DNA from: Candidatus Omnitrophota bacterium
Lineage (GTDB): Bacteria; Omnitrophota; Gorgyraeia; JABMRN01; RBG-13-46-9
NCBI GenBank assembly: GCA_016782425.1
Contig: JADHYN010000001.1
Location: forward strand, 67,100 to 131,099
Direction: 5' to 3'
Length of the DNA stretch: 64,000 nt
Positions within the stretch are counted from its first letter, which is position 1. The number at the start of each line of letters is the position of its first letter. Position numbers and translations under genes: made by a program. The notes beneath the pieces were generated by a model. That model was given only the letters and a program-made list of their open reading frames with translations. It did no database searches and was not told the origin of the DNA. Shown piece after piece: positions 3,902 to 62,954 of the stretch.

Positions 3902-3907
3902 ATCTAG

Positions 3908-4078
3908 TTTTCGTCGGTCGATTGCGGTTGCGTCCCTAGCGGTCTGTATAGAAAATGTGGTGCTAGGGATTCCCTTCGGTCATCGCACGAATCGTCGGTT
4001 GTTAAACGGTTGCGTGCATTTTCTTCACGCAACCGAATAACGCAACCGTTTCTCGCGACACTACCTACCGACACAACC
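3908..4078. repeat. Palindromic intergenic element, family 2 (GGTTGCG-rich), copy a
   Basis: Shares the TCGGTTGCGGTTGCGTC left arm, the central hairpin CGGTTGCGTG..CACGCAACCG and the ACGCAACCGTTTCTCGCGAC..CCGACACAACC right arm with 25135-25258 and 34411-34529. Confidence 0.65.
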
Positions 4079-4080
4079 AT

Positions 4081-4302
4081 TCAACGACTAAACCTCTTTA
4101 GCTCCTTGAGTGCCCCCAAAGTATCATCCGCTTCCTGCTTGGTTACTTTACCGATAGCAAACCCGGCGTGGACAAGCACGTAGTCCCCTACCCTAACCCC
4201 GTCGAGAATCCCGAGCGAAATCTCTCGCCTTACCCCGCCGAAGTCAACGGTGGCGGTCTGTTTTTTTATTCGCTCAATTTTTGCCGGTACTGCAAGACAC
4301 AT
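4081..4302 (-). CDS. hypC: Hydrogenase maturation chaperone HypC
   Basis: Starts MCLAVPAKI (the Cys2 signature), is 73 aa long, and lies between hypF and hypD. Confidence 0.9.
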   Translation of the reverse strand: MCLAVPAKIERIKKQTATVDFGGVRREISLGILDGVRVGDYVLVHAGFAIGKVTKQEADDTLGALKELKRFSR

Positions 4303-5344
4303 AGTATTGTCCTAATGATATGTTCAGGTCATTAACCGGGTTCTTTTCGTTTATAAACACCCTGAATTCGGAAAGAGATAAAATTTTTATAGCCCTCATC
4401 TTTAAAAATTTGTTTTGGAATACGCCTCCTGAAAGAGCAACCGTTTTTATGTTTGTATCACCGGATATTTTCTTTACTGTATCTAATATGATGTTTGCCA
4501 TTGAATTATGGAAGTTGGTTGCTATTATACTTTTTTTCTTTTTCTTTTTAATGTCACGGAGCATTGCGTTAAATAAGGGCCTGACATCTATTTCGTAAGA
4601 GTTTTTTTGTTTTTTTATATTAAACTTATAGCTTCCGAGTTCACTTCTTTCGCACAGCTTCTCAAGTTTTAAGGGAGCTTCGGCTTCGAAAGACGCACGC
4701 ACGCATAAACCTAAAGTTGCGGCAGCTGCGTCAAAAATGCGGCCCGCGCTTGAAGTAAGCGGGCAATTTATTCTTTTCTTAAGCATTTCGAGAACACTTC
4801 TTTTTTCCTTTTTGCTTACTCTTTTTATAAAAGGTGCCGCCTTCTCGCCTATTATGCTTAACGCCATACGCCAGGGCTCTTTTATGCACTTTTCCCCTCC
4901 CGGCATTTCCCTGTAAGTAAAATGAGCGGCTCTTTTGAAACCTGCTTTATCTACCACAAGAAATTCGCCTCCCCAGATATTTCCGTCTGTTCCGTAGCCA
5001 GTACCGTCGAAGGATACGCCTATCACGGGCCCCTTGAGTCCATGCTCGAACATAACGCTTGCTATGTGGGCATGGTGGTGCTGGACAGGTTGCAGGTTAC
5101 AGGTTGCAGGTTGCAGATTGCAGGTCTTTGCAAAGCGGGTTGAAAAATAACCCGGGTGCAGATCATGAATAACAATATTCGGTTTAGATCTTTTTATTAC
5201 TTGATAAACCTCTGTTTTAAAAAACTCATAATTATTTGCATCGCCCAGGTCGCCTGTGTCAGGACCAAAACTTATATTCTGCCCGTCAGATATAAGAAAT
5301 CTGTTCTTTATGTCAGAACCTAACGCAAGTATTGTTTTATCCAT
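4274..5344 (-). CDS. hypF: HypF-like protein consisting only of the C-terminal Kae1/ASKHA-like domain
   Basis: Motifs VQHHHAHIASV and GVSFDGTGYGTDGNIWGGEF. At 356 aa it has no acylphosphatase, Zn-finger or YrdC-like region. Confidence 0.75.
   Translation of the reverse strand: MDKTILALGSDIKNRFLISDGQNISFGPDTGDLGDANNYEFFKTEVYQVIKRSKPNIVIHDLHPGYFSTRFAKTCNLQPATCNLQPVQHHHAHIASVMFEHGLKGPVIGVSFDGTGYGTDGNIWGGEFLVVDKAGFKRAAHFTYREMPGGEKCIKEPWRMALSIIGEKAAPFIKRVSKKEKRSVLEMLKKRINCPLTSSAGRIFDAAAATLGLCVRASFEAEAPLKLEKLCERSELGSYKFNIKKQKNSYEIDVRPLFNAMLRDIKKKKKKSIIATNFHNSMANIILDTVKKISGDTNIKTVALSGGVFQNKFLKMRAIKILSLSEFRVFINEKNPVNDLNISLGQYYVSCSTGKN
5085..5126. repeat. In-frame 6 x 7-nt tandem array inside hypF
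   Basis: Units are acaggtt gcaggtt acaggtt gcaggtt gcagatt gcaggtc. The 42 nt encode TCNLQPATCNLQPV just before the HHHAH motif. Confidence 0.8.
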
Positions 5345-5352
5345 TTTTTTCG

Positions 5353-5387
5353 GTAGCCTGAAACCTATGACCTGAGGCCTGTAACCT
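5353..5387. repeat. Intergenic 5 x 7-nt tandem array (NNNNCCT)
   Basis: Units are gtagcct gaaacct atgacct gaggcct gtaacct. The array fills the hypA-hypF spacer and overlaps the hypA stop. Confidence 0.7.
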
Positions 5388-5628
5388 ATTCCACATCAAA
5401 GGATACTACTTCGATCCGCGAAGCCGGAAAACTATTCATTTCCAGTTCCGCACTCTCAAGAACAGTCCCCTTAGCCAGGACATTAAACGTTTCTTTAAAA
5501 GATTCTTCTTTTATACCGGTGTAAATACCTATTTTAACGCGTAATTTTGACACTTTCCCGCCACCTTCTTTTTTAACATGCTCCGAAATCCCGTCTATAA
5601 TCGGCTGTATAAGGTGTGTTTCATGCAT
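5386..5628 (-). CDS. hypA: HypA-like nickel metallochaperone lacking the zinc-finger domain
   Basis: N-terminal MHE Ni-binding motif and a HypA-like core. It is only 80 aa with no CxxC pair, and ends ..EVVSFDVE. Confidence 0.6.
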   Translation of the reverse strand: MHETHLIQPIIDGISEHVKKEGGGKVSKLRVKIGIYTGIKEESFKETFNVLAKGTVLESAELEMNSFPASRIEVVSFDVE

Positions 5629-6082: not shown

Positions 6083-6090
6083 TTTATTAT

Positions 6091-6118
6091 AGCTTAAAGC
6101 TTATAGCTTACAGCTACT
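6091..6118. repeat. Intergenic 4 x 7-nt array (AGCTTAN)
   Basis: Units are agcttaa agcttat agcttac agctact. On the mRNA strand the array gives TAG/TAA stops in all three frames. Confidence 0.75.
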
Positions 6119-6731: not shown

Positions 6732-6744
6732 ATTTCTTTCTTAT

Positions 6745-6772
6745 AGCTTAAAGCTTACAGCCTATAGCTGTT
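6745..6772. repeat. Intergenic 4 x 7-nt array (AGCTTAN)
   Basis: Units are agcttaa agcttac agcctat agctgtt, the same family as 6091-6118 and 47003-47044. Confidence 0.75.
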
Positions 6773-12525: not shown

Positions 12526-12538
12526 CTCTTTTTATCCC

Positions 12539-13717
12539 TTACCGCTTACCCCTTAGCTTTTCTGTCTTCTCCTGCGAAAGTTTTACTAAATCCTCGCCGG
12601 TATATAATTTCTTTCCTTTTATATTGCGCACAGCCATCCTCTCCGTGCAGCAATAGCAAGGATCTATCGCGGCAAGAATTATTGTCGCATCCGATATCGT
12701 TTCTCCCACAACGGTCGCTTTATATGTAGGCAAATTCATGAATGTTGGCGCTCTTACTTTGTGACGCGCAGGCCTGTTTGTGCCGTCAGAACGAACGTAA
12801 TGAAACGTCTCGCCTCTAGGAGCCTCGATATGTCCTATCCCTTCTCCGGGCGGAATGCTTTTTAGGTTGAGGTCTATTTCACCTTTCGGCAAATTCAGGA
12901 GACAGTGCTTCATTATTTTTACCGCCTCAAACATTTCAAGCACTCTTACGATAACCTTATCAAAAACATCGCCGTTCTGCGTTACTATCATATCCCACTC
13001 TACTGCATCGTAAGCTCCGTACGACGAGTCTTTTCTCACGTCTCTTGCAACGCCTGAAGCCCTGGAAGTGGGCCCGAGAGCCGAATAGTTTAGGGCCTCT
13101 TCTTTGGTTAAAACGCCTATTCCTTTCGTGCGGGCGTGAAGAACAGGATCATCTATTACGGCTTTTTTAAGCATATTAAGAGTTGGTACGATAGAATCTA
13201 TTTTTTTAATACACCCTGGTATGTCTTCGGATTTAATATCGCGCCTTACCCCACCCGGCTTAAACATAGCGTAGTTGTTTCTGTTGCCGGAAAGAATTTC
13301 CATTACATCCAGAATTTCTTCCCTCAACTTCCAAGCCCACATATAAACCGTATTATACCCCAGGAAATGCCCGGCAAGGCCGAGCCACAAAAGATGAGAA
13401 TGAATTCTCTCACCTTCGGCTATTATGGTCCGTATGTACTTGGCCCTCTCGGGAACCTCAACCGGTATTATGTCCTCGACGGCTCTGGTATAAGCAAACG
13501 GATGGCTCGTAGAGCAAATCCCGCATATTCTTTCTATGACAAAGGTTGACTGATCGAACGTCTTCATCTCTGAAAGTTTCTCTATGCCACGGTGGTTGTA
13601 CCCCACGCGGACGTCTATATCCACAACTCTCTCACCCTCAACGGTAAGAGTAAAAAATTCCGGCTCTTCCTGCAGCGGATGATACGGGCCTATTGGTACT
13701 ATTGTTCGTTTACTCAT
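12539..13717 (-). CDS. Group 4 membrane-bound [NiFe]-hydrogenase large subunit (NuoD/MbhL/HycE-like)
   Basis: N-terminal RICGICSTSH and C-terminal DPCYCCTER motifs mean all four Ni-ligand Cys are present. A 32-aa tail follows the R. Confidence 0.9.
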   Translation of the reverse strand: MSKRTIVPIGPYHPLQEEPEFFTLTVEGERVVDIDVRVGYNHRGIEKLSEMKTFDQSTFVIERICGICSTSHPFAYTRAVEDIIPVEVPERAKYIRTIIAEGERIHSHLLWLGLAGHFLGYNTVYMWAWKLREEILDVMEILSGNRNNYAMFKPGGVRRDIKSEDIPGCIKKIDSIVPTLNMLKKAVIDDPVLHARTKGIGVLTKEEALNYSALGPTSRASGVARDVRKDSSYGAYDAVEWDMIVTQNGDVFDKVIVRVLEMFEAVKIMKHCLLNLPKGEIDLNLKSIPPGEGIGHIEAPRGETFHYVRSDGTNRPARHKVRAPTFMNLPTYKATVVGETISDATIILAAIDPCYCCTERMAVRNIKGKKLYTGEDLVKLSQEKTEKLRGKR

Positions 13718-13718
13718 A

Positions 13719-13781
13719 TAGTTTTTAGTTATCAGTTTTCAGCTATCGTTTCTGATAACTGATTACTGAAGACTGATTACT
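13719..13781. repeat. Intergenic 9 x 7-nt array
   Basis: Units are tagtttt tagttat cagtttt cagctat cgtttct gataact gattact gaagact gattact. The array fills the spacer between the NuoC-like and large-subunit genes. Confidence 0.7.
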
Positions 13782-13784
13782 GCT

Positions 13785-15617: not shown

Positions 15618-15709
15618 GTTCCGATAGACGATAGACGATCGTGCCCTGCGGGCACTCGGACGATAGACGATTCGTCCTTTCGTACTTTCGTCCTTTCGTC
15701 CTTCGTAGC
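15618..15709. repeat. Palindromic intergenic element, family 1 (GTTCCGA..TCGTCCTTTCG), copy a
   Basis: gttccgatagacga .. cgtgccctgcgggcactcg .. tcgtcctttcgtactttcgtcctttcgtcc. Related to 22793-22889, 36877-36991 and 37800-37915. Confidence 0.65.
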
Positions 15710-15716
15710 TTAGTTT

Positions 15717-22786: not shown

Positions 22787-22792
22787 ACGCGC

Positions 22793-22889
22793 CTTCCGTT
22801 ACGATGGACGAGGGGACGACCGCTCGCTTCGCTCGCTAGGACGATGGACGATTCGTCCATCGTCTTTTCGTCCTTTCGTCCCTCGGAAC
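22793..22889. repeat. Palindromic intergenic element, family 1, copy b
   Basis: ttccgttacgatggacga..gacgaccgctcgcttcgctcgct..tcgtcctttcgtccctcggaac. Confidence 0.65.
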
Positions 22890-25111: not shown

Positions 25112-25134
25112 GAGATTTCCTTTTTTTGGTTTTT

Positions 25135-25258
25135 GTCAATCGGTTGTGGTTGTATCGCGCAAAACGTCGGCCGTCGAATGGTTGCGTGTTTTTTTTCGCA
25201 CGCAACCCACTGACGCAACCGATTCTCGCGACGCCACCGCAAACGCAAACGCAACCGA
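25135..25258. repeat. Palindromic intergenic element, family 2, copy b
   Basis: gtcaatcggttgtggttgtatcgcg..ggttgcgtg-T8-cgcacgcaacc..acgcaaccgattctcgcgacgc. Confidence 0.65.
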
Positions 25259-25265
25259 AAGCATA

Positions 25266-25862
25266 TTAATAATTCTCACACAATACTTCGTAATACGCCT
25301 TGGGGTGCGCACAAGCCGGGCATTTATCCGGCGCAAATTTCCCCTCGTGCACATAACCACAGTTACGGCATTTCCATTTTACAGCCGCGTCCTTCTCGAA
25401 AACTTTCCCGTCTTTTATGTTTTTCAGAAGCTTTCTGTAACGGGTTTCGTGCTCTTCTTCAACTTCAGCTATTTCTTTAAACTGCACCGCAACTTCTTCG
25501 AATCCTTCTTTTCGCGCTGTGCGCTCGGCTTCTTTGTAAAGCTTTGTCCACTCAAGGTTCTCACCCGTAGCCGCGGCCAAAAGATTCTTAGGCGTATCCC
25601 CTATTACCCCTGCCGGGTAAGATGCCTGGATTTGGAGCTCTCCGCCTTCAAGAAACTTAAAAAAGCGCTTTGCGTGTTCTTTTTCGTTATCAGCTGTCTC
25701 TAAGAAAATAGCTGCGATTTGCTCGTAGCCTGCTTTCTTAGCTACGCCACCGAAATATGTATACCTGTTTCTTGCCTGCGACTCACCTGCAAATGATGCC
25801 AGAAGATTCTTTTCTGTTTCGGTTCCTTTAATCGATTTTGTTTTTTTTGCTGTCTCTGCCAT
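25266..25862 (-). CDS. rbr: Rubrerythrin
   Basis: The di-iron domain (GESQARNRY, EKEHAKRF, EEEHETRY) plus a C-terminal CRNCG..CPAC. The start at 25862 has an AAGGAG RBS. The track's longer start lies in a repeat. Confidence 0.9.
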   Translation of the reverse strand: MAETAKKTKSIKGTETEKNLLASFAGESQARNRYTYFGGVAKKAGYEQIAAIFLETADNEKEHAKRFFKFLEGGELQIQASYPAGVIGDTPKNLLAAATGENLEWTKLYKEAERTARKEGFEEVAVQFKEIAEVEEEHETRYRKLLKNIKDGKVFEKDAAVKWKCRNCGYVHEGKFAPDKCPACAHPKAYYEVLCENY

Positions 25863-25871
25863 AAAGTCTCC

Positions 25872-25910
25872 TTTTCGTCTATCGTCCTTTCGTCCTTTCG
25901 TCCTTCGTAA
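25872..25910. repeat. Partial family-1 element (right half only)
   Basis: tcgtctatcgtcctttcgtcctttcgtccttcgtaac, between the desulforedoxin stop and the rbr start. Confidence 0.5.
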
Positions 25911-25912
25911 CA

Positions 25913-26032
25913 CTACGTCCTCTCCATTGGCTGGCCGCAGCACACTAGTTCCCCGCCTCCGGATTTAGTAACCTTCACTTCATTTCCACAAATTTCACAC
26001 TTATATTCCTCCCCTATTTTTTCTACCTGCAT
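25913..26032 (-). CDS. Desulforedoxin-like 39-aa protein (not in the supplied ORF track)
   Basis: Codon-by-codon translation gives [39 protein letters not shown]. It has the CxxC..CC Dx signature and a GTGAGG RBS. Confidence 0.7.
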
Positions 26033-33796: not shown

Positions 33797-34393
33797 TTAC
33801 ATTGAAGGTTTCCTAGGTTTCTCCGTAATTCTTATACCTAATTCAAATGCCTTATCGAGAAGTTCCTTCTGCTCCAAAACCGCACCTTTGTAATCTAACC
33901 CTTTACACAAAAGCTCTTCCTTATAATTTAAGCTTGCGGTCGCAAAGAAGTTTTTGATTATGGATTTTGCGTTTGCGAGAAAATCATCTCTTTTAGACGC
34001 CTCGACTAAAATAAGCGCCCCGGTTTTTTTTTCTGTCCTCTGTCCTCTGCCTTCTGTCTTCTGTGTCATATACTTATAGCGCCAGGCGCATTGGAACCTG
34101 TCGATAAGGATTTTCGACTGGGCGCTTAAAGACCCGAAGAATATAGGCGAGGCAAAGATTACAGCGTCTGCTTCTTTTATTTTCTTAAAGGTTTCCTGAA
34201 AGTCGTCCTCTATCTTGCACGTGCCGTCACCTTTGACATCTTTGCACTCCTGGCACGGAACCATTTTCAAATCATTCAGGACTATTTTTTCCGTCTTAGC
34301 GCCCTTTGAACGGGCGCCAATAAGCGCCTTCTCAAGAAGCGTATCTGTGTTGCCGTTTTTTCGGGGGCTACCTAGTATGCCGAGTATGTACAT
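33797..34393 (-). CDS. Iron-sulfur flavoprotein / NADPH-dependent FMN reductase-like
   Basis: ILGSPRKNGNT flavodoxin-like start and a CQECKDVKGDGTC compact Cys motif. Confidence 0.7.
   Translation of the reverse strand: MYILGILGSPRKNGNTDTLLEKALIGARSKGAKTEKIVLNDLKMVPCQECKDVKGDGTCKIEDDFQETFKKIKEADAVIFASPIFFGSLSAQSKILIDRFQCAWRYKYMTQKTEGRGQRTEKKTGALILVEASKRDDFLANAKSIIKNFFATASLNYKEELLCKGLDYKGAVLEQKELLDKAFELGIRITEKPRKPSM
34033..34067. repeat. In-frame 7-nt tandem array inside the Isf-like gene
   Basis: Units are ctgtcct ctgtcct ctgcctt ctgtctt ctgtgtc, preceded by a T-run. The array encodes ..TQKTEGRGQRTEKK.. Confidence 0.75.
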
Positions 34394-34410
34394 ATCTTTT
34401 ATCGTTTTTC

Positions 34411-34529
34411 GTCAATCGGTTGCGGTTGCGTCGCGTGAAACGTCAATCGTCAGTCGGTTGCGTGAATATCGACGCGGCCGAACGACGCAACCGTTTCTCG
34501 CGACGCAAACTACCGACACAACCACAACC
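34411..34529. repeat. Palindromic intergenic element, family 2, copy c
   Basis: gtcaatcggttgcggttgcgtcgcg .. acgcaaccgtttctcgcgacgcaaactaccgacacaaccacaacc. Confidence 0.65.
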
Positions 34530-34533
34530 AAAA

Positions 34534-36859: not shown

Positions 36860-36876
36860 CTTATCTATACTTTCTA

Positions 36877-36991
36877 GTTCCGATGGACGATGCCTGCCTG
36901 CCGGTCAGGCAGGGACGACCGCTCGCTCACGCTCGCTCGGACGAGAGACGAATCGTCCTTTCGTCCTTTCATCCCTTCGTCCTTTCGGAAC
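36877..36991. repeat. Palindromic intergenic element, family 1, copy c (complete)
   Basis: The ends GTTCCGATGGACGA and TCGTCCTTTCGGAAC flank an internal hairpin (gcctgcctgccggtcaggcaggg) and the cgctcgctcacgctcgct core. Confidence 0.7.
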
Positions 36992-36996
36992 GTTGT

Positions 36997-37785: not shown

Positions 37786-37799
37786 CAAACCTCCTCATA

Positions 37800-37915
37800 G
37801 TTCCGATGGACGATGGGCGACCGCTCGCTTCGCTCGCTTGGACGAATGGACGATTACTTTATGCCGTTATATTCGAATCGTCCTTTCGTCCCTCGTCCCT
37901 TCGTCCTTTCGGAAC
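37800..37915. repeat. Palindromic intergenic element, family 1, copy d (complete)
   Basis: Same ends as 36877-36991, with a shared gaccgctcgcttcgctcgct core. Confidence 0.7.
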
Positions 37916-37916
37916 G

Positions 37917-39622: not shown

Positions 39623-39639
39623 TGATCTTTTTTTATATT

Positions 39640-39752
39640 GATTACACTGATTCTCTGCTTCTAATAAGATGCAACCAAGATTACACAGATAAAATATAAT
39701 CTGCGTAATCGATGTTGCACAATTTTTGAGCAGGAAATCTGTGTAATCATTT
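39640..39752. repeat. GATTACAC-type nested palindromic element, copy a
   Basis: GATTACAC occurs at 39640 and 39679. Its inverse G(C/T)GTAATC occurs at 39703 and 39741. Positions 39716-39751 match 41741-41776 at 34/36 nt. Confidence 0.65.
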
Positions 39753-39753
39753 T

Positions 39754-41682: not shown

Positions 41683-41700
41683 TTGTGTTTATTTTTATAA

Positions 41701-41776
41701 ATGATTAGACAGATAGACAGTCAATCTGTGTAATCTATACTGCACAATTTTTGAACAGGAAATCGGTGTAATCATT
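41701..41776. repeat. GATTACAC-type palindromic element, copy b
   Basis: atgattagacagat..atctgtgtaatc..atcggtgtaatcatt. It overlaps the acsC stop codon. Confidence 0.65.
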
Positions 41777-43181: not shown

Positions 43182-46100
43182 TTACATTAATGGATCCATC
43201 GTAACAGCAGGATGCCCTTTTTCTGTTAAAAATTTTACGAGCGCTTCTGATTCAGTCGCGTTCTCTTCTGTAGCGATTTTATCAAATAAATCCGCTGCGC
43301 CGTCTTCCTCGCAACGCTTTTTAAGTTTGCCGACAAGCGCTTCTTTAAGTTCTTTCGGCATCCACACCAGACGTTTCAGGCCTCCGTCCGCAATCAGGAA
43401 TTTTTTACTTACTATGTAAAGCCTTCCCACACCCATGAACCCAGGTGTCTGGTTTCCGCCGCCAACAGAGCCCGCAAGCGTTGAAAACTTCATTCCTGCC
43501 GGCGTAAATCCGGCGTACTCGCGGTTTACCACCATAAATCCGTTTGCCTCCGGTAATATCGCTATGATACATTCAAAACACCCGCAAGCTGTGTCTGGAA
43601 ATGTCATAATTGAATACGCGTGGAACCTTTCAATAGCTTTATTTGACTTTTGATAAATAAATTCATTTACACCTTTCCATTCACCTTTTACGGGATCGAT
43701 AATCTCACCTTTTTTAACCGGCTGGTTTGGGCCTGTTGGACTAAGTTCATAACAAGCTTTCGCATCAATGTAACTATAGGCGCCGCACAAGCCTATTCTT
43801 TCTGGCTTAACTATACATACATGATTTGGCGCAAATGATTGGCAGTTTTTGACTACAATCCCATTTACTAAATAATTATGCGGACCAGGTACGCTAAAAT
43901 TGTAAACTGCCTTTTGGTTATATTCAATGCTTTCTATCTTCTTTACCTTAACAAAATTAATTTTGGAATAACACCAAGCATAGAGTTCTTTAAATAAGCT
44001 GTTTCCGGTATTGATGTTGGGCTTTAATTCATCCAAAAGTGCTGCTAGTTTTTCTTTCGAAATACGATATTTAAATTCTATCCAGTCGTTTATTATTCCG
44101 CGATCAACTGCGGAAAGGTGTGACTTGATAATCTTAAGTGAGCTAAATAATTTATCAACTATACGACTGCAAAGCCAAGGAACCGTATCCGTCCTTATAG
44201 TGTGGTATTTGTCTTGGTTAAATTTCAGGGTTTCCATTCGCGCTTTTTTACCGGAATGCTTAGATGAGACAGCCGTTGTAAACTTCTCATATTCAACTCT
44301 GTTTTGTACACAAACTTGGTAACAACCCGTGGCTTTTCTAATTGTGGTATGTATGCCCAATTTTTTAAATAAGAAATAAACATGCTGCGCTTCTTTGTAC
44401 CCTTTTGTAGAAATGGCAACTCCTGACTGTGTAACATGTCCGTCACCATCGAATAGCCCTTTAAGAAAAGAGCCGATAAATGTTGAAGGAAAGCGAGAAA
44501 TAACGCTCCCTTGCCATTTCATACTTCTGTTTGCCGGCCTAATTCCTAAATTAACTATGATGCTTGCTATAACAGGAGCATAAAGTTCGACCGTCCATGT
44601 CTTCTTGTGATGTTCAGCATATCTTGGCTTTGTTCTAACCCTACATTTATCAGCAAAATATCGTTCTGCAATGTTGCAAAATTCTTTAATTAGAGAATAC
44701 TCGGAATTTGTAAAAGTAATTCTAAGGGGTATTCCATCTTTAGATCTACTGTCATAACGAATTGTCCCGTCAGCAGCTATAAGACCTGCTATATACATAA
44801 AATCTTCTTTAAGAATTGTCTTTTTGAGAGACTGACCACGACTATTACCAAGTCTTGAAATCTTATGTTTAGCTGCATCCCAATCTAAGCTGATGTTTTC
44901 AAGAATCGCTTTTATTTCACTTATTTTGAGACGATTTGGTCCATTTATTCTACGTTTTTGTAAACCGCGATAGAACCTGTGATATTTAATACCTATCTGC
45001 TTTGCCGCTTTTTGAAGAGAGTTATATTTTGACAAAACTCGATCCCTTAACCACCCTATGAAATCCTCATCATAAACTTTAAGCGCATCCAAAACGAAAT
45101 CTATTAAATAGAATTCGTTTTTGGTTTTGTTTTCTACTGCATGAAGTAAAGTTTGTTTTGGAGAAAGCACATAGTCTACGTTTGTTATGTCACCTGCCTC
45201 AATCCAATCCAAACCCTGTTTAGTATCAACAAGAATGCGATGATTCTTGGTTAAAGTTATTGAATTTCCATCTCTTAAGGTAATTTTTATAAGTTTTTTT
45301 GGGGCAGGGTGTGCAAATAATTCTCCTATTGCTTTCTTTTTAATGCCCTGATTCTCGAAAGATAATACCTCTACATCATGTTTATCTGCTACAGTTTCTA
45401 TCACTCTTTCTATGGTATCAAAGGATCCATCCTTGAGAGTTATTAATTCTCCCTGCGGTACGCACAAAGTACACGAATAAAACGTATCCACGCTTTCGTC
45501 AGTCATGCCTTCAATGCGCGCATCACGCTCCTCGTAGGACTTAACCGCTTCAGGCATGATGCGCTCCACATCTTCTTTTTTCGTGTAAATAGTTATTTGC
45601 GCTTTATCCACTATTTTTCCGTACGTGTCATGGAAACGCGCGTGGAGTATCGTGCCAAAGTGTTTTAATTTAAAGCCCTTTTTCACAGCCTCCTTTGAAA
45701 TTCGTATCCAGCACATATTGCGTTGGCCCATATGGAATACGCCCATTGCCTCATTTAAAAATGAGTGGGCCTGTCTTTCCAGTATAGGTTCGAAATCAGG
45801 CTGCATTTTTCTTCCCGCGACTTCCATTAGAATGCCCAGGGGATAAGCCTCGCCCTCTTTCATATCGTCTATTTCCGGGCCTACTACCTCTATTTTGCCA
45901 TCTTCTACTTCGTCCAACGATTTTGACCGGGTAAATTCAAAAGCCGACGAGAATTTTCCCCCGAACTGGACATACATGTTCTGCCTTCTCACTCTCTCCC
46001 CTTCAAACGCGGCGCTGTAAGCGACGGGAACAGGGATTTTAGAAAGCTTTACCTTCACGCCCCGCACTTCTATCGAGCGCTGTACTATTTTCTTATAGTC

Positions 46101-46979
46101 AAACTCTTTTACGAGGTGCTCATAAGTACAGATGCCAGTGGGCTTTATTTCCGGTATATCCGTATCAGCTATGATAGGAAACCCCATATTTATAGCACCG
46201 GCGCCTGTTGCGTATTTAATATCGTCGAGCGGCCCGAGCGTTAAACCAAAAGCAAATACTCTTTCCTTGCAATATAAAAGGCAGTCTTTGGCGTTGCCAG
46301 CTTTTATGCCGCCGAACGTAAGCGCCCCGCGTATTGCCCAGTGCAAAGGATAAATCCCTGAAATCGTATCTCTTCCGTAAGGAACTATGTAGGTATCCCA
46401 GCCCATTTCCACTTTTTCTTCTATTAGCTGGTCTATTATGCTTTTTCCGTTAGATGATGACCCGACAAAAGTCATGATGTTGCGCTTTTGAAATTCACGC
46501 ACTATCTCAACGGCTGTTTTATTATCAGGCGCGGCTCCGAGAATCGCGGCAAAGCCCGGCATCCTCCCGTCGACAAGCTGTATGCCAAGTGTTCTTAATA
46601 TAGTATCGCTAAAAAAGCCGTTGCAGTCTTTTTGCGGCTCCTGATTGTAGAGATACCGCAGCACGCATATAATTTCCTCGGCTAAAAGAGCGGCAATCCC
46701 GGAATCAAGAGCGTCCCCGAGATACGGAAGCCACAAGTCTTTTGTCGGTTCATCGTGTATGAGGGATTTCGCTTCTTTTAATACCGGCAAAACTTCGTTT
46801 AAGGTTTTTACCTCTGCCCCGAGAAGCGCATTCGCCATGGGAAGGTAAAAAGCGGTTTCCGGGAATTCTATTTTTTGGTCTTTTCCTTTTTCCTCGAGCG
46901 CTTTATTTAAAAACTCTTCGGCCTGTTTTACAAGTTCCCGAGCGCCGCGTATGGCCGCTCCAGCCACTATCTTCGACAT
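43182..46979 (-). CDS. acsB: Acetyl-CoA synthase catalytic subunit AcsB, interrupted by an intein
   Basis: The flanks (505 + 220 aa) are colinear AcsB and carry CTL/C-QSFAPNHVC and ACGCFEC A-cluster motifs. The whole 1265-aa ORF is in one frame. Confidence 0.9.
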   Translation of the reverse strand: MSKIVAGAAIRGARELVKQAEEFLNKALEEKGKDQKIEFPETAFYLPMANALLGAEVKTLNEVLPVLKEAKSLIHDEPTKDLWLPYLGDALDSGIAALLAEEIICVLRYLYNQEPQKDCNGFFSDTILRTLGIQLVDGRMPGFAAILGAAPDNKTAVEIVREFQKRNIMTFVGSSSNGKSIIDQLIEEKVEMGWDTYIVPYGRDTISGIYPLHWAIRGALTFGGIKAGNAKDCLLYCKERVFAFGLTLGPLDDIKYATGAGAINMGFPIIADTDIPEIKPTGICTYEHLVKEFDYKKIVQRSIEVRGVKVKLSKIPVPVAYSAAFEGERVRRQNMYVQFGGKFSSAFEFTRSKSLDEVEDGKIEVVGPEIDDMKEGEAYPLGILMEVAGRKMQPDFEPILERQAHSFLNEAMGVFHMGQRNMCWIRISKEAVKKGFKLKHFGTILHARFHDTYGKIVDKAQITIYTKKEDVERIMPEAVKSYEERDARIEGMTDESVDTFYSCTLCVPQGELITLKDGSFDTIERVIETVADKHDVEVLSFENQGIKKKAIGELFAHPAPKKLIKITLRDGNSITLTKNHRILVDTKQGLDWIEAGDITNVDYVLSPKQTLLHAVENKTKNEFYLIDFVLDALKVYDEDFIGWLRDRVLSKYNSLQKAAKQIGIKYHRFYRGLQKRRINGPNRLKISEIKAILENISLDWDAAKHKISRLGNSRGQSLKKTILKEDFMYIAGLIAADGTIRYDSRSKDGIPLRITFTNSEYSLIKEFCNIAERYFADKCRVRTKPRYAEHHKKTWTVELYAPVIASIIVNLGIRPANRSMKWQGSVISRFPSTFIGSFLKGLFDGDGHVTQSGVAISTKGYKEAQHVYFLFKKLGIHTTIRKATGCYQVCVQNRVEYEKFTTAVSSKHSGKKARMETLKFNQDKYHTIRTDTVPWLCSRIVDKLFSSLKIIKSHLSAVDRGIINDWIEFKYRISKEKLAALLDELKPNINTGNSLFKELYAWCYSKINFVKVKKIESIEYNQKAVYNFSVPGPHNYLVNGIVVKNCQSFAPNHVCIVKPERIGLCGAYSYIDAKACYELSPTGPNQPVKKGEIIDPVKGEWKGVNEFIYQKSNKAIERFHAYSIMTFPDTACGCFECIIAILPEANGFMVVNREYAGFTPAGMKFSTLAGSVGGGNQTPGFMGVGRLYIVSKKFLIADGGLKRLVWMPKELKEALVGKLKKRCEEDGAADLFDKIATEENATESEALVKFLTEKGHPAVTMDPLM
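43845..45464 (-). mobile_element. 540-aa intein with a LAGLIDADG homing-endonuclease domain inside acsB
   Basis: It begins at Cys506 (CVPQGELITL) and ends ..NGIVVKN, followed by the +1 Cys (CQSFAPNHVC). LAGLIDADG-type motifs are YIAGLIAADGTI and FLKGLFDGDGHV. Confidence 0.85.
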
Positions 46980-47002
46980 ATGAATATTCTCCTTTTGCTT
47001 CC

Positions 47003-47044
47003 AGCTTAAAGCTTACAACTTAAAGCTTACAGCTTATAGCTTAT
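47003..47044. repeat. 6 x 7-nt array (AGCTTAN) between the FAD oxidoreductase gene and acsB
   Basis: Units are agcttaa agcttac aacttaa agcttac agcttat agcttat. The array supplies the last codons and the TAA stop of the upstream gene. Confidence 0.8.
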
Positions 47045-51326: not shown

Positions 51327-54300
51327 TTAAGCTGACTGGAGAGTGCGCAAAATACCAAGATATTCTTTCTCGAGTTCAGGGGTCAGTGGGCCTACGGGGC
51401 GTAGGATATAAACTCTAAAGACAAGGCCGCTTTGCCTCATGTGAACCGCTACATTTAAGGCTTCGGCAAATGAATATGTAGAGTGCTTGTATAAACCCAC
51501 CAGAACCACAGGAACCTTAAGACTCGCTAAATTCTGCGGGTGTCCTCCAGGCCCTTTGATGAGAGCAAGTACGTCCCCGGCTCCTTCGGCTTTCATCACT
51601 TCAAGAAGCGCTCTTGCCTCTTTGGCATAATCCGATTGGGATTTTGGATGGGCTTTTATTAATCTCGGCTTTTCTCGGATAAGTTCATCCAGTGTTTTTG
51701 TAGTTACCTTTATTTTTCGGGAAGCGCGCTCTATCATATTTCTCATTATCTTTCCGTTTTTCTCTTTTCGCGCGTAAAGAAATACTGTCCCCCCTGCCAG
51801 CAAATCATGTTTTATAAGAACATCTTTAACCGTTTTTTCGAAGTCCACTACGGCAACTTCTTCTAACAGATCGTCTGCGTAAATCGCAATGCTCTGGCCC
51901 TTTACATCGTCCTCGCCTAAAATCTCGTCCGCTTCCTTAGCCCGCTTATTATATTCTTCCAGATTCTCACGACGTAATATTTCATTGAAAATGATGAATT
52001 CTTTTTCCTCGTCTAAATCAGTTTTGGCCGCAAGCACTTCCTGCTTTCCGAGCAATATCCTTAATCTCGCAAAATCGATCGAGTGCGGAATGCCTTGCGA
52101 ACGTTGGAGACGGGCATATAACTTATCAACCGCTTTCTGTATTTCACCAAGCCGCATTTCTCCAACAGCTTTTTCTCCGGGCCGCCTGGTTCCCGAGGAC
52201 ATCTTTGTTGGTAATGAATATTTTTCGGTTTCCTCCCCATCAACTCGCAAGTCTTTCCTGATCTTGCTTCTTAAGTTTTCCACAAGCACGTCCAGTCTTT
52301 CGTCAGTTATTGATAATCTTTCAAGTATTCTCGTTTTATGCGTGTCCTGCCCTGCCTCGGATAGTACAGCTTCTAATTGTTGCGTCATTTCTTCTCTGTC
52401 AGCCACGTAACGGCTCCTTATCGTCTCATAGCCCCTGCGAAAACCGCGTAAATAGTTTTCCATGTTATCTATGAAAGTTTGCCTGTCATGAGGAAGGACC
52501 CAGCCCGTTAAAGAATACATAGTCCTGGAAGCCTCGTAGAAATCCTCTTCTGGCGATTTCTCAAGATAGCGCCTGGTAAGCAGGTTCTCTCTGTCTATAT
52601 TTACAATTGCCCTTTTTTTAATATCCAGCAATTCTTCTTCGGAATATCTTTTTATCTTTTTGATATTTATTACAAGATTATGCCATCTATCGCACATTCC
52701 AAGGACATGTGCCTCGGCCATGGCAGCGCCCAAAGAAAAGAAAAACTTTTCCATAAATTCTTCGTTCGCGGAATGCGTACCCAACTCACTTAGAAAATCA
52801 ACCATGTCCACGCCGCGTATTTCGCGTATATAGACGTACCGCTTTCCCTCTTCCACCCAAACATGAACACCTCTTATGGCGTCAATTAACCTGTTTCCCG
52901 TAATGTGCGAAATATTGTCAAAATCGCCGCTTATCTCTTTGTCCTTTATTACCGTCCTCATCGGAAATCCATGTTCATCTATGATTACCGCGAAATACGG
53001 CATAGTCATAGCCATGTCGCATATATATCTGGAAATAGCCATCCTGCCGCTTTTTCTCCTTAACATTTTTGATCCGGGAAAATCTTTCATTATATGTTCT
53101 GAAAGTTGTCCTGCGCTACCTTCCGGAACGTCGGTAAATATCGTTCTGTGCGAAGCGGTTGTTCTTTGAACCGTAGCTCCTTCAAGGAAAACTAATTCTT
53201 TCATATCGTCAAAAATTCCTCCTACGGAATCCCTGCCCGGCAATTCAGAAATTGCTTCCTTCTGAAACCGCGTTAAAAGTTCTCTTTTTTTCATCCGGTC
53301 AAGTTTTCTAATGCACTCTAAATCGGCTTCCCCTCCGATGTCGCCCGTTTCTTTCCGCTTAACAAGCGCCAGCGCGACTTCGGCAAGCGCCTCTTTTCTC
53401 GGAATGTCGTCTCTGTCCCGCAATTTTTTAAAGAATGACCCTATTGAGGTCAGTTCTTCCGGCGAGGCGCTTTCTATGCGCTCTGTTAATGGCCTTATCG
53501 CATCTACCAGCAGCTCCTGGCTAACGCCTATTTGGTCATTATTCTCATTCGCCTTAAAAGCCTCAATAGCCCGCCGCGCTTCTTCAATCATACCTTCAAT
53601 GGGTTGAGAAATAGCCACAGAACCAATTCCAAAACCTGGTTTAGAGATGGGTTTTTGTTCATAGCCATGAACATCTGCAAAAAGTATTCCTTCTTCATCT
53701 TTAACATCAACGCGTGATGAGGGAACATCTTCTTCGGAAAAAATAAATGATGATGGGGGCCTATGTAAACCCTTGGGCCCGCCAAAATTTACGAAAACAA
53801 CCGGTTTCTTACATCGTATTGCAAGTTTCTTCGGCCATGCAACCGCTTCGGCCATATCAGTCCCTGCAGGTAACAGGATCACGTCTACTTCCTCAAGTAA
53901 TGAATACAAAGCTGTATCCAAGGATCTTTTAATTACATTTTTGCATTCGCTGCATATAAAAAGCGCTGCTTTGGTGCCGTTGATTACAAAGAATCGATTT
54001 TGCATGTTTCTCTCAAATTTATGGAATACGAGCGGCTCCTGTTTTGGCCGCAATATAGTATATGTGCAATTATATGACCCGGCCTTCTCTTGCTGATCCT
54101 TTCTGGTAGTTTCGATAAAATAACCAGCCGCAATACCAGTAGTTTCAACAAGTTTCTGGAGCGTTGAAATCCTATTTTCAGGATCAACATTGATGGAATT
54201 AGGGTCATCCATTGTTTCAGGGAAAATTACAATATCGGGCTTCCATGTTCCCCAGGTATTCATGACTTTAAGAATTTCAGCTATTCGATTTGTGTTATTA

Positions 54301-57300
54301 TGAAAATTATTTTCGGAAAGCTGAACGCCGCAAACCTTAAATGCATCATTTGCAGGTTGACGACGCGCGTACACGGATAATTCTAAATGTTCTGTTTTAA
54401 GACAAATAGGGACAGCTCTATTTTCCACGCCGATCTGCGACGCCGCCTCCGGACCTCGCAAGTCCGTAGAGGTCGGCTTTTGGCCATTGGTTATATCTTC
54501 CGCGCGCACAGCGCTGCCTGCGGCGCCGCGGTCTATCCCGCCCATGAGTATATTTTCCTCGGATGCGCTGTCGAGCCTTAGCAATTCCTCAATGGAAAGC
54601 GAACTATCGCTTATAAGTGACCCGCGAAGCGCGGAACATTCTTCGGAAAAACCGTCACTCTCATCAAGCTCTCCCTCCAAAAGCTTGCCTACCTTATCAT
54701 AGAAGCCGGTTATAATATCTTTCTGGTTAAACGCAAGTTGGTCAGACAGGATCTGCAGTAAATCTCTTGCATTACTTATATCGCTCGCAAAGTCAGATTC
54801 ATCCTTAGAACTTTCAATAGTGTCATAGTCAAAAACACTTAAAAGATTTGTGTTGTAGGGGCTTAAGACACTTCCATCTATGTTATGCATTTTACTGCGT
54901 TTGCCGCTTTTGAGAAGCGTATTCATGTTATGTGCAAGGTAAGAGGCCAGCCTGAGCCTGAAAGCCGCGGCTTTCAGTATGAATTCTACGGCTTTGTCCT
55001 TATCGAGCGACCGTCCGGAGGCATCTTCAACTACTATTTTCTGACCGTCTTTTCGTATTGTTAACCCGTAGTATCCAAAAAACAGCCTTAAGGTCTCTGG
55101 TTTATCCATTGAAAGCTCACTTGTTCTCGTGGAGACGGCTGTTTTGTAAAACATAACATACATGTCCTGGTCCATGCCAAGCATCTCCAGGGCCTTTTCG
55201 CGCTCGAGAAGGATTGTCTCTCCCATGTCGGCAAGAAGCGCGTTCCTTGTATTTTTACTGGCCATTGCTCGGCGCCTATCCGTTATTGCCGCGGGTATGG
55301 CCAGCGGCCTGAAGCCTGTTTCCGGGGAGAAGAAGATGTCTTCTTTGACGTTGAGTATCTCGGTAAGCGCTTTTATGTCGGGACGGGTCCTCATGAGCTT
55401 GCGGAACGCTCTGTGAAGGGATGAGGTTAATGCGGGGTCTATCTCGCTCTTTATAACTCCGCCGTCAAATCTTCCTATTTCGTTAACATCATAAAAAATA
55501 TGAAGCCCCGGAATAGTGCTAAATGCGTAAAAATTGCCCGAGCCCTTAAAGACAAAAGACGGTTCGCTATCTGTGTGACGCGATCTTCCGTGCGTTTCGG
55601 AATTAACGCCTGAGACCATGGGAATTAAAAATAGGTTATTTATCGCTTTGAGGCCGGTCGCATCCTTAAGGCTCCTGCCAAGAATAGCATTCCTTTTAAA
55701 TACAGTATTGCCTCTTACGTCTTTTACCTTTCCTACAGGAATTATGATTCCTTTTTTTACGGCCTCCTGCACGCTTTTCATGTCCGAATCTCTGCCCGGT
55801 ATCATGATAGCGGGAACGAGGATGGTATTGGGAATGCTTGAGGCAAAAATGACCTTCTTTTTAAGAAGCCCGATGAGTTTTATTCTCTCTTTGTTTTCTG
55901 TGTTTTTTAATTCATCTTCAAGCTCTCTTATAAGGGATTCGCGTTTTTCGGGCGTTGCTTTTTTTCCGGCGCGAAGTGAAAAAATAATTCTGAGGAGATC
56001 AAATCTCTTCTCCTCGCATAGCCTTATGAGGGAAGATAACTTTTTAGGTTCCAGTTCACGGGATATGAATTCCAGATGTTTAATGTTTTCCGATATAAGT
56101 CGTGCGTTATCTCCTATTGTTTCTACATAACCAGCTAAATCTAGAGCGTTTATGTCAGTATGAGAAAAGTTTAATCCTGTAGCTTTGGCAAGCTCGATAA
56201 GAGCGAGGGATTTTTCGTAAGAGTCTTCTATTTCATCTATTGCGCCTCGGGCGAGTTTAAGGTCCTTACGGGTTTTAGTTGCTTTGGCAAGTTCTATAAG
56301 GGCGAGGGATTTGTAGTGAGGACGCTGTATTTTATCTATTGCGCCTCGGGCGAGTTTAAGGTCCTTACGGGTTTTAGCTGCTTTGGCAAACTCTAAAAGG
56401 GCGAGGGATTTTTCGTAAGGATACGGTATTTCATTCATTGCGCGGCGTATTTTTTTATTCAAGGCGATTTCCTCAAGCACATTAGAAGCTTCTTCTAAAT
56501 ATGCCTTGCGTACGGGTTCTTCGTCATCCACAGGTAATGTCGCCATTGCAAGCACCCCGCCTCTTATAAACTTCTCAAGATTATACAATCCATGAATAAG
56601 CATAATAAGCGGAAGAGCATATGAAGGAATAAAGAATATAAAAGCAAGATATGCTGTTCGGATTAAGAGGACTATTCTTAGTATATCTCTTTTGTCCTTG
56701 TAATTAGCGGATTTTTTTTCGATAATGCCATTGTTTACTTTTAAAACATACCAGAAGTGCACGGCAAAGAAGAGAAAGAAACTTACACAGGAATTCGCGA
56801 TTACATGATTGAATAATGGCGCTTCCTCGATGATAATACCGCTAAAGATATATTCTTCTATCATGCTTGCTAAGAAAACAAAAATTCCTATTGAAAATTT
56901 CGAAACGTTTTTAGCTTGTAACCAACTAATCAGTTTCCACCAAAGGCCTGGAACCATGCCCAGCGGAACTTCGTGTCGGCCGGAAGTAAGGCTACTATCG
57001 CCTATCTCTTCCTCGCGCGCGGAGGTAGCCGTTTCAGGCAGGCTCCATTCTGATATTTTCGGCGGGACCTCTTCATTCAGTTTCTCGCTTACCGCTATAG
57101 AACGCGTAAATGGTTTCCTTGAATGATTCACAACTGCTCTTGAGAAAGTAGAACCACCAAATATTTCATATTCAGAATACGTTTCTTGTTCGGAACGTAA
57201 ATATTTACGCTTAAGGTGTTTTGCTATTTTTACTATCATATGAGCAAAATCAATGATATAGCTTAAAACTATAACGCCGACAACAATAACACCCGCAATA

Positions 57301-61961: not shown

Positions 61962-62111
61962 CCGTTAAGGGCGCCCCTTGTGGGCGCCCGTACAATAATG
62001 ATTATTTGTTTCGTGGGAGGCGATTTTATGGTCGCCGGGTAGGTGGCCGTAGGGGCGACCTTTATGGTCGCCCTATCGTTATTTCCTTAAGAGCGCCCAC
62101 AAGGGGTGTCC
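61962..62111. repeat. REP/BIME-like cluster of GC-rich hairpins downstream of folD
   Basis: Hairpins include GGGCGACCTTTATGGTCGCCC and GCGCCCACAAGGGGTG. About 100 nt are roughly 90% identical by eye to 63181-63288, inside the RAYT gene. Confidence 0.75.
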
Positions 62112-62954
62112 CTATGATAATTTAAACGCAGTTACGACATTCCGCATGAGCATGGTGACGGTGAGCGGCCCTACTCCGCCAGGGACAGGGGTTATGAATG
62201 AGGCTCTGTCTTTTGCAGGCTCAAATTCCACGTCGCCTACGATTCTTTCACCGACGCGGTTGATGCCTACGTCGATAACAATAGCGCCCGGTTTTATCCA
62301 CTCGCCCTTTATGAGGCCGGCTTTACCGACCGCGACCACGAGTATCTCGGCCCGTTTTACGTGCTCGGGCAAAACACCGCGCTCTCCGGTGGCAATGTGG
62401 CAGACTGTAGTAGTGACAAAGCTATTTAAAAGAAGAAGCGCCAGGGGTTTGCCTACGATTTCAGAGTGGCCGACGATGACTGCTTCCTTGCCATAAAGAT
62501 TCTCACGCGTTGATTCTATAAGCTCGAAGGCAGCCTGCGCCGTGCATGGCGCTACGGATGCGTCCCCGAGAAGAACGTGGCCCAGATTCTCCGGGTGCAT
62601 TCCCTCGGCGTCTTTCGCGGGAGAAATAGACCTAATGATCAGCCTATGGTCGATCCCTTTCGGAAGCGGAAGCTGGACGATAATACCTGATACGCTATTA
62701 TCTTTATTCAAGGATTTTATCTCGGTAACAAGAGTGTCCTGTTTAGTATCCGCGCCTAACGTTTTCAGACCATACTCTATTCCGAGAGCCTCGGCGGTTT
62801 TTTTCTGTGCCCTTATATAAACAGCTGAAGAGGTATTCTCCCCTACCTGGATGCTTACAAGTTTTGGCTTTTCCTTAAAAGACGCGATCTTTTTCTTCAA
62901 CGCTTCTTTTATGCTTGCCGCTATCGCCTTACCTTCTAATAACTGTGCGCTCAT
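62112..62954 (-). CDS. folD: Bifunctional methylene-THF dehydrogenase/methenyl-THF cyclohydrolase
   Basis: LLEGKAIA.., VQLPLP and GHSEIVGKPL motifs. The start at 62954 has GGAGGAG 6 nt upstream. Confidence 0.9.
   Translation of the reverse strand: MSAQLLEGKAIAASIKEALKKKIASFKEKPKLVSIQVGENTSSAVYIRAQKKTAEALGIEYGLKTLGADTKQDTLVTEIKSLNKDNSVSGIIVQLPLPKGIDHRLIIRSISPAKDAEGMHPENLGHVLLGDASVAPCTAQAAFELIESTRENLYGKEAVIVGHSEIVGKPLALLLLNSFVTTTVCHIATGERGVLPEHVKRAEILVVAVGKAGLIKGEWIKPGAIVIDVGINRVGERIVGDVEFEPAKDRASFITPVPGGVGPLTVTMLMRNVVTAFKLS

Follow-up and report, generated by a model that had tools for sequence, protein, structure and literature searches.

In-frame heptanucleotide arrays in two Omnitrophota enzyme genes and their relationship to intergenic repeats

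How does a tandem array of 7-nucleotide (nt) units come to lie in frame inside a gene for a conserved enzyme, and does its presence there mark a switch? The question is raised by a 64-kb stretch (64,000 nt; hereafter the window, to which coordinates refer unless otherwise indicated) of contig JADHYN010000001.1 from an uncultured Candidatus Omnitrophota bacterium, in which two minus-strand genes, hypF and a flavoprotein gene, each contain such an array. A first reading of the letters alone (the original prediction) proposed that both arrays are intergenic-type heptamer sequence that invaded open reading frames (ORFs) in frame-preserving lengths, and that they could also act as contingency (phase-variable) sites. 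The first proposal is borne out by our analysis and the second gains no support. The best explanation, and in our judgement a probable one, is that these are heptanucleotide simple-sequence repeats (SSRs) whose homogenisation and copying take place at the level of DNA and whose presence in protein loops is tolerated.

Heptamer arrays within genes and spacers

The first in-gene array lies at 5085-5126 (minus strand) within a gene (4274-5344, minus strand) encoding a 356-residue protein with Pfam domains HypF_C and HypF_C_2. The name hypF stands, with the qualification that the product is the Kae1-like carbamoyltransferase (C-terminal) half of HypF only, and we refer to the gene as hypF-C; its protein, like that of the second array-bearing gene, is 100% identical to a protein from an NCBI metagenome-assembled genome labelled Omnitrophica. 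The operon order is mnhE-F-G, Fer4, hycI, hypA, hypF-C, hypC, hypD, hypE, and hypA (5386-5628, minus strand; 80 residues, Pfam HypA) lies upstream of a spacer array discussed below, with which the in-gene array forms an inverted pair as its 3' arm. As predicted, there are six heptamers, ACAGGTT GCAGGTT ACAGGTT GCAGGTT GCAGATT GCAGGTC on the plus strand and, in the coding direction, ACCTGCA ATCTGCA ACCTGCA ACCTGTA ACCTGCA ACCTGTC; Tandem Repeats Finder (TRF) reports 5.7 copies of period 7 with 87% matches at 5086-5125. The encoded peptide, TCNLQPATCNLQPV, is directly followed by the QHHHAH motif. All 120 closest homologues (338-407 residues) likewise comprise only the Kae1-like C-terminal half, and the acylphosphatase, zinc-finger and YrdC-like N-terminal domains are not part of the hypF-C gene.

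The second in-gene array is at 34029-34067 (minus strand), in a gene of the flavodoxin fold (33797-34393, minus strand; 198 residues) that had been called Isf-like and that matches Pfam FMN_red and Flavodoxin_2; we call it the FMN (flavin mononucleotide)-reductase gene. The five heptamers predicted here are present, reading ACACAGA AGACAGA AGGCAGA GGACAGA GGACAGA on the coding strand and running into A9; on the plus strand the corresponding T9 run at 34023-34031 precedes the array, of which TRF recovers 34032-34064 (period 7, 4.7 copies, 88% matches). The peptide specified is TQKTEGRGQRTEKK. Directly upstream of this gene is a copy of a separate spacer element family (3902-4080, 25112-25265 and 34394-34533) characterised by repeated GGTTGCGT / ACGCAACC motifs and a hairpin.

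The number of such arrays in the window far exceeds the chance expectation. Counting arrays of at least three copies and taking 40 third-order Markov shuffles of the window as the chance model, we found seven period-7 arrays where 0.23 were expected and five period-8 arrays where 0.25 were expected, which amounts to a 20-30-fold excess over the shuffles for these two periods. No arrays with periods 3, 6 or 9 are present in the window (0.25-0.35 expected at periods 6 and 9). A stricter scan, requiring at least 79% identity between positions i and i+7 over 28 nt, identified three period-7 regions in the window and none in 20 shuffles, and two of the three are the coding arrays. The period-8 arrays reported by TRF are the arms of a dispersed palindromic element described below and are distinct from the heptamer arrays; one 8-nt array considered as a third coding case, in the ORF at 25266-25943, was rejected, as it lies upstream of the true rubrerythrin start, which is marked by a Shine-Dalgarno sequence and an ATG near 25861.

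Of the seven period-7 arrays, five fall wholly or partly in spacers, while about 93% of the window is coding, and relatives show a similar pattern. Most arrays other than the two in-gene ones occupy short spacers between co-directional minus-strand genes, where they begin at or beside the upstream stop codon and end approximately 10-15 nt short of the next start. Stops are present in all three sense frames in five of six spacer arrays, and there are no in-frame stops in the two coding arrays. A Shine-Dalgarno sequence is missing from most array-containing spacers, and AGGAG is seen in spacers that lack arrays. The spacer between hypA and hypF (5345-5385, minus strand) contains about five degenerate heptamers with the unit CAGGTTN and no Shine-Dalgarno sequence before the ATG. 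A family with the unit AAGCT[G/T/A]T fills three spacers, all on the minus strand: 6083-6113, between the Fer4 gene and hycI (CTGTAAG CTATAAG CTTTAAG CTATAA, with stops in three frames and no Shine-Dalgarno sequence); 6732-6770, upstream of the Fer4 gene, which has the same unit as 6083-6113 in direct orientation; and 46980-47043, which spans the 3' end of a pyridine-nucleotide oxidoreductase gene and the spacer preceding an acetyl-CoA synthase/carbon monoxide dehydrogenase (ACS/CODH) beta-subunit gene. An array of AAGGGGT AAGCGGT AAGGGAT at 12532-12555 (minus strand) specifies the C-terminal residues LRGKR and the stop of a [NiFe]-hydrogenase large-subunit gene, and the spacer array at 13718-13784 (minus strand) consists of two mutually complementary parts, (CAGTNAT)x4 followed by (CTGANAA)x3, forming a hairpin with periodic arms.

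The coding arrays are heptanucleotide SSRs of the same class as these spacer arrays, as had been proposed. The hypF array is the reverse complement of the spacer array immediately upstream, and the AAGCT[G/T/A]T family of the window's spacers is found, as its reverse complement, inside hypF of other genomes. Spacer-type sequence is thus present within ORFs, in lengths that keep the frame.

The hypF linker and the FMN-reductase loop in homologues

The hypF array was predicted to be a lineage-specific insertion of 14 codons, and this does not hold. We define the linker as the segment between the motifs HPxYxS and QHHHAH, and every HypF has one. It is 19 residues long, as in the window, in 70 of 120 Omnitrophota-type homologues (55-85% identity). 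Nine of the 120, which is nine of the 50 with other lengths, have a 12-residue linker; this is a modest excess of seven-residue losses that we do not use as support. Among the 70 proteins with 19-residue linkers, 27 have at least three of eight possible identities at an offset of seven residues; in shuffles the number of such proteins averages 1.07 and never exceeds 5, and at other offsets it is 0-5.

DNA of close relatives (designated by L numbers) was retrieved through exact-protein look-ups; the matches listed from broader contig scans with HypF motifs were mostly from other phyla and served only as outgroups. Clear heptamer arrays occupy the identical hypF site in 10 of the 16 relatives with DNA, each with its own unit. 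The window has AACCTGC; L161, whose protein is 85% identical to that of the window, has ACCCCTT; and at 62% and below we find ACAGCCC (L164, 62%), AGCTTAC (L165, 62%), an AAGCCC-type unit (L167, 61%), AACTGTS (L047, 60%), ACGACAT (L166, 59%), CACCCTG (L170, 59%), TCAACTC (L001, 58%) and, in the Ratteibacteria, ATCTGTC (L003, 44%). In L003 five heptamer arrays are packed into 1.2 kb, within the HypF region and upstream of it and all in one long open frame (1295-1319, 1398-1429, 1649-1676, 1891-1925 and 2391-2424 of that locus); they include one direct and one inverted pair. The SLQLKAYSLQL-type linker, encoded by (AGCTTAC)n, is found in 12 homologues scattered over the neighbor-joining tree, and the window's unit AACCTGC is AGCTTAC with three transitions that are present in every unit, as concerted evolution of an old array would produce. 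On these alignments the hypF array is shown to be old, with a single site carrying graded or different units across the lineage, the pattern that concerted evolution would predict.

The structural setting of the array is that of a permissive segment. In an AlphaFold2 model of hypF-C (mean predicted local distance difference test score, pLDDT, 86.6) residues 75-82 form a coil between a helix (67-74) and a strand (83-87), and the block 71-80 is modelled with low confidence (pLDDT 62). The crystal structure of Caldanaerobacter HypF (PDB 3VTH) aligns to hypF-C residues 4-349 and is five residues shorter at the linker, and among the matches listed the HypF proteins of other phyla have linkers of 14-25 residues with no period-7 signal. 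Because the segment is coil within a low-confidence block of the model, varies in length in other phyla and is shorter in 3VTH, we take it that the array-encoded segment is, on model and alignment, a tolerant linker between helix and strand.

The FMN-reductase array has a different history, and for this gene the prediction of a lineage-specific insertion is largely upheld. The loop that bears the array is 16 residues long in 86 of 104 homologues and conforms to the pattern RYKYILKKxxxxKKxP, and that of the window has 20 residues (RYKYMTQKTEGRGQRTEKKT), from which we calculate that the array overwrote about eight residues and added four. In a relative with 85% identity (L162), a shorter heptamer-like tract (GTCAAGG GTCCGGG GTTCAGG GTTCGGA) is present at the same loop between nearly identical flanks. 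These alignments show the FMN-reductase array to be younger and confined to its lineage, where it has rewritten a loop that is conserved as a rule. No array complementary to it was found within 900 nt or elsewhere in the window; the segment 34130-34165 emerged as a candidate pairing partner (z = -3.1), but it is a pyrimidine-rich conserved coding stretch without repeats and we take the match as chance.

The hypA-hypF spacer and alternative explanations

The coding strand of the hypA-hypF spacer reads TAG GTTACAG GCCTCAG GTCATAG GTTTCAG GCTACCG, and its unit CAGGTTN is the reverse complement of the hypF in-gene unit. The inverted arms, 5094-5124 and 5357-5387, are 31 nt long, 74% complementary and 232 nt apart. 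A reverse-complementary spacer array is present in all three lineages with an array-filled hypA-hypF spacer, and the unit is different in each: L161 has AAGGGAT AAGGGGT AAGCGGT AAGGGAT in the spacer and ATCCCTT ATCCCTT ACCCCTT ACCGCTT in the gene (25 nt, 92% complementary), and L164 has (GTGGGCT)n in the spacer and (ACAGCCC)n in the gene. The L167 contig is cut after 14 nt of spacer and over that length agrees with complementarity. Six other lineages have no spacer, their hypA and hypF genes overlapping (ATGTGGAATAA), and carry the in-gene array by itself, which indicates that the spacer is a derived insertion and that the in-gene array does not need it; two others (L169 and L081) have a spacer without an array together with a decayed in-gene array. 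Further complementary pairs of arrays are found at 13718-13784 of the window and, in relatives, at L161 1739-1770/1799-1822, L001 8221-8262/8294-8322 and L003 1891-1925/2391-2424. By comparison among these lineages the hypA-hypF spacer is shown here to be an insertion into a junction at which the genes ancestrally overlapped, with its array an inverted copy of the in-gene array.

Several observations bear on how such copies arise. Neighboring arrays share units in inverted orientation in four to five pairs and in direct orientation in two (window 6087/6740 and L003 1295/1649). The window's hydrogenase gene, at its 3' end (12532-12555), and the hypA-hypF spacer of L161 (634-657), which are non-orthologous positions, have an identical stretch of 24 nt, TAAGGGGTAAGCGGTAAGGGATAA. 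L161, which has about 90% overall operon identity with the window, also contains a clean 132-nt insertion (1755-1886) at the hypF/hypC junction, corresponding to 4291-4306 of the window; it consists of two complementary heptamer arrays (CGTGTAC and GTACACG), rewrites the HypF C-terminus and has no copy in the window. Mismatches between arms, read on the sense strand, comprise 5 G.U, 11 A.C and 9 others, and with no excess of G.U there is no signature of selection on the sense RNA. Together, the sharing of units in direct orientation, the 24-nt identity at non-orthologous loci, the L161 insertion and the lack of a G.U excess favor an origin at the DNA level. As a separate observation, each unit of the TAAGGGGTAAGCGGTAAGGGATAA array resembles TAA followed by a Shine-Dalgarno-like AGGGG.

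Under the explanation that we prefer, which draws on analogy with other SSRs, arrays would arise and remain homogeneous by replication slippage, and copying or gene conversion would occur between nearby arrays in either orientation. Survival within an ORF would then require three conditions, namely a tolerant surface linker or loop, a total length that keeps the frame, and an orientation without an in-frame stop. The coding arrays have the look of repeat-turnover by-products that are tolerated, not of on/off switches, and we infer that no array function is needed to explain them. Several points weigh against this account. Pure neutrality predicts neither the strong conservation of the 19-residue length of the hypF linker nor the fact that, among the window's period-7 arrays, the two coding ones are the most regular; the account would need slippage in frame-preserving or in balanced +1/-1 steps, and some process able to copy an array across about 230 nt or 7 kb; and about 20 DNA loci underlie the DNA comparisons. 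Moreover, the cognate spacer and in-gene arrays of the window, L161 and L164 form duplexes with calculated energies of -36.9, -44.1 and -42.9 kcal/mol, compared with -12 to -21 for non-cognate combinations, and the helix between them appears in both the minimum free energy and centroid folds of all three RNAs. This pattern of cognate pairing is also what selection for pairing would give.

The pairing data bring up the alternative that survives best, a functional long-range mRNA helix in which pairing would join the spacer array that follows hypA's stop codon to the in-gene array, situated about 230 nt downstream. Such a helix would enclose the start region of hypF and its first 73 codons and could control translation, coupling to hypA, or mRNA processing or stability, with the tandem heptamers serving as a pairing module that is easily re-evolved. 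Beyond the strength of the cognate duplexes, this is favored by the position of the helix as the outermost element of the predicted structures (z = -2.2 for the window, -3.8 for L161 and -2.9 for L164), by the unrelated units in three lineages with L167 consistent, and by the lack of Shine-Dalgarno sequences in array-containing spacers, a property also ascribed to TAACTGA spacers of Beggiatoaceae (PMC4679880). Most lineages nevertheless have the in-gene array with hypA and hypF overlapping and no spacer, showing the array to be independent of its partner; the asymmetry of G.U over A.C expected on the sense strand is absent, the variant units of L161 do not follow a mirrored order, arrays share units in direct orientation too, and no Rfam family is matched anywhere in the window. 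The covariation itself calls for caution. Between the window and L161 identity is for the most part 55-65%, locally reaching 84%, across the block 5085-5600, which extends from the start of hypA as far as the in-gene array, and it rises to 96-100% immediately after the array. This suggests recombinational import of a segment that ends on one side at the array or at the conserved QHHHAH region, and the two arms may thus have a joint inheritance or have arrived in one import. We regard a functional helix as doubtful on these grounds. A broader version, somewhat more doubtful in our view, treats heptamers as an evolvable pairing device: a selected helix would gate hypF, concerted evolution would change both arms together, and the Omnitrophota spacer hairpins with periodic arms would be functional intercistronic elements that replace coupling based on Shine-Dalgarno sequences.

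Phase variation, as originally suggested, would have the gain or loss of one heptamer frameshift and reversibly silence the gene, as in the phage-encoded acetyltransferase NeuO of Escherichia coli K1. The predicted consequences of a one-unit change are correct, in that the arrays are in frame and adding or removing a unit cuts HypF-C short at residue 84 or 91 of its 356 and the flavoprotein at residue 135 or 126 of its 198. In NeuO a heptanucleotide coding variable number tandem repeat (VNTR) that obeys a multiple-of-three rule is an established switch (PMC3046976), slippage-type events over long times are implied by the concerted evolution of the hypF array, and two Logan contigs end within the hypF array, but contig ends inside repeats are expected from de Bruijn (k-mer) assembly. 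Near-identical contigs (99.75-100%) from several samples and assemblers cover the hypF locus (six) and the flavoprotein locus (five); four at each span the whole array, and all have the array sequence of the window, indicating that the arrays are not assembly artefacts. No change in unit number or in A9 length is seen in the spanning contigs, including one with 10 substitutions in 4 kb (0.25%), at the level of consensus sequences in which minor variants are possible, and the 90% cluster of each protein contains a single sequence, on five contigs. (An apparent 100-nt insertion in contig L172 proved to be a run of N marking a scaffold gap.) The units are interrupted, leaving longest perfect period-7 tracts of 17 nt in hypF and 18 nt in the FMN-reductase gene, or about 2.5 units, compared with up to 93 copies in NeuO (PMC3046976), and the genes concerned serve housekeeping, in maturation and redox chemistry, and do not specify surface determinants. 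We consider contingency function improbable.

Two further alternatives have very little to recommend them. Inversion of the 232-bp segment carrying the hypF start, using the arrays at 5094-5124 and 5357-5387 as recombination sites to silence the gene, would account for the 25-31-nt inverted repeats that flank the hypF 5' end in three lineages, but we think it most improbable given a single orientation in all six near-identical contigs, arms in the window that are only 74% complementary, the lack of a second arm in most lineages, and no recombinase among the listed neighboring genes, in a search that was not exhaustive. Selection at the protein level for a repeated seven-residue peptide, with the DNA periodicity as a by-product, would fit the common 19-residue linker and its frequent seven-residue self-similarity, but is hardly credible for a peptide that is hypervariable between lineages (TCNLQPA, SLQLKAY, SPQPTAQ and TYDIRHT, for example), lies in a low-confidence coil of the model, is encoded by DNA with period 7 and not only 21 such that all three reading frames of one unit are used, and is replaced by non-repetitive linkers in HypF of other phyla among the matches listed; no homologues with the same duplicated peptide but non-periodic DNA were seen.

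Other repeats, known systems and significance

The window contains other repeated elements that are separate from the heptamer arrays. The dispersed palindromic element noted above occupies spacers at five loci (15656-15716, 22787-22888, 25866-25910, 36860-36996 and 37789-37916); it has GTTCCGA...TCGGAAC ends, about four AGGACGAA 8-mers in one arm, TCGTCC repeats in the other and a GCGAGCG core, and resembles a repetitive extragenic palindromic (REP) or miniature inverted-repeat transposable element (MITE). Two further pairs of spacers share repeated sequence: 39623-39753 and 41683-41771 have a GATTACACAGATT-type hairpin element, and 62025-62120 and 63191-63287 have a repeat of 60-100 nt that is 86-94% identical. 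The ACS/CODH beta-subunit gene (43182-46979, minus strand; 1265 residues) contains an intein with a LAGLIDADG homing-endonuclease domain at approximately residues 513-1045 (Pfam Intein_splicing and LAGLIDADG_3), and a 3528-residue ORF (51327-61913, minus strand) contains a 99-nt (33-residue) tandem repeat at 56182-56443 with 2.6 copies and 84% identity.

The closest known analogues of the heptamer arrays are the short tandemly repeated repetitive (STRR) arrays of cyanobacteria and the TAACTGA arrays of Beggiatoaceae. The latter are direct repeats described in marine Beggiatoaceae, some Cyanobacteria and Bacteroidetes (MacGregor 2015, PMC4679880). There, as here, two to six tandem 7-nt units fill spacers from stop to start, the repeat-containing spacers usually lack a canonical ribosome-binding site, and the forward orientation provides stops in three frames, as in the five of six spacer arrays of the window. 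The reverse orientation of TAACTGA occurs in ORFs, where it encodes seven-residue repeats in mostly tolerant positions (PMC4679880), and correspondingly the window's in-gene arrays are reverse complements of spacer-type units. The systems differ in that one unit dominates each genome with TAACTGA repeats, whereas nearly every array here has its own unit and a few families recur (AAGCTNT and AAGGGGT); in that retention of an array at an orthologous coding site across a lineage and complementary spacer/in-gene pairs are not reported in the sections of PMC4679880 consulted; and in the phylum, here Omnitrophota. No TAACTGA unit lies in forward orientation upstream of starts in the window, the only TTACTGA/TAACTGA-like unit being at 13752-13782, on the opposite strand to the genes, and the units of the remaining arrays being unrelated.

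In many genomes the commonest class of long SSRs (LSSRs; units of 5-11 nt) is that of heptanucleotide arrays (Mrazek et al. 2007, as cited in PMC4679880), a polymerase-related slippage origin has been proposed for such repeats (PMC4679880), and STRR arrays are mostly intergenic, in Nostoc lying between hydrogenase and hyp genes (PMC2408588). The window has the features of the STRR/LSSR class within 64 kb: head-to-tail 7-nt units in at least three copies, above compositional expectation, at many loci that are mostly intergenic. STRR consensus units include CCCCAGT, TTGGTCA and CAACAGT, and none of these is among the array units of the window and its relatives. SSR surveys, as relayed in PMC4679880, find coding repeats mostly with units that are multiples of three, and the arrays described here are 7-nt units in frame within enzymes. 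The coding heptanucleotide poly-psi VNTR of NeuO, from prophage CUS-3 of E. coli K1, is similar in that three units specify one seven-residue heptad, with full-length protein made only when the number of copies is divisible by three; it consists, though, of 2-93 perfect units that change in number at high frequency near the N-terminus of a surface-modifying enzyme (PMC3046976), unlike the five or six imperfect units seen here, which do not vary among assemblies and lie in internal loops of housekeeping enzymes. Our full-text literature search, limited to tandem and heptanucleotide wording, found no description of heptanucleotide repeats in Omnitrophota.

Three features go beyond the published cases that we consulted: persistence at an orthologous coding site with concerted turnover of the unit, complementarity that covaries between spacer array and in-gene array, and arrays that are identical at loci that are not orthologous. 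The findings extend to the Omnitrophota a little-understood heptanucleotide-repeat phenomenon of cyanobacteria and Beggiatoaceae, and provide a natural case of a 7-nt microsatellite that has lasted at one orthologous coding site while its unit turned over, so that concerted evolution of coding repeats can be measured along a protein tree. They also caution that in-frame repeats of non-triplet units are not always phase-variation switches. The complementary spacer and in-gene pairs, together with the identical arrays at non-orthologous loci, point either to an unrecognised DNA-level copying between short arrays or to a new intercistronic RNA element.

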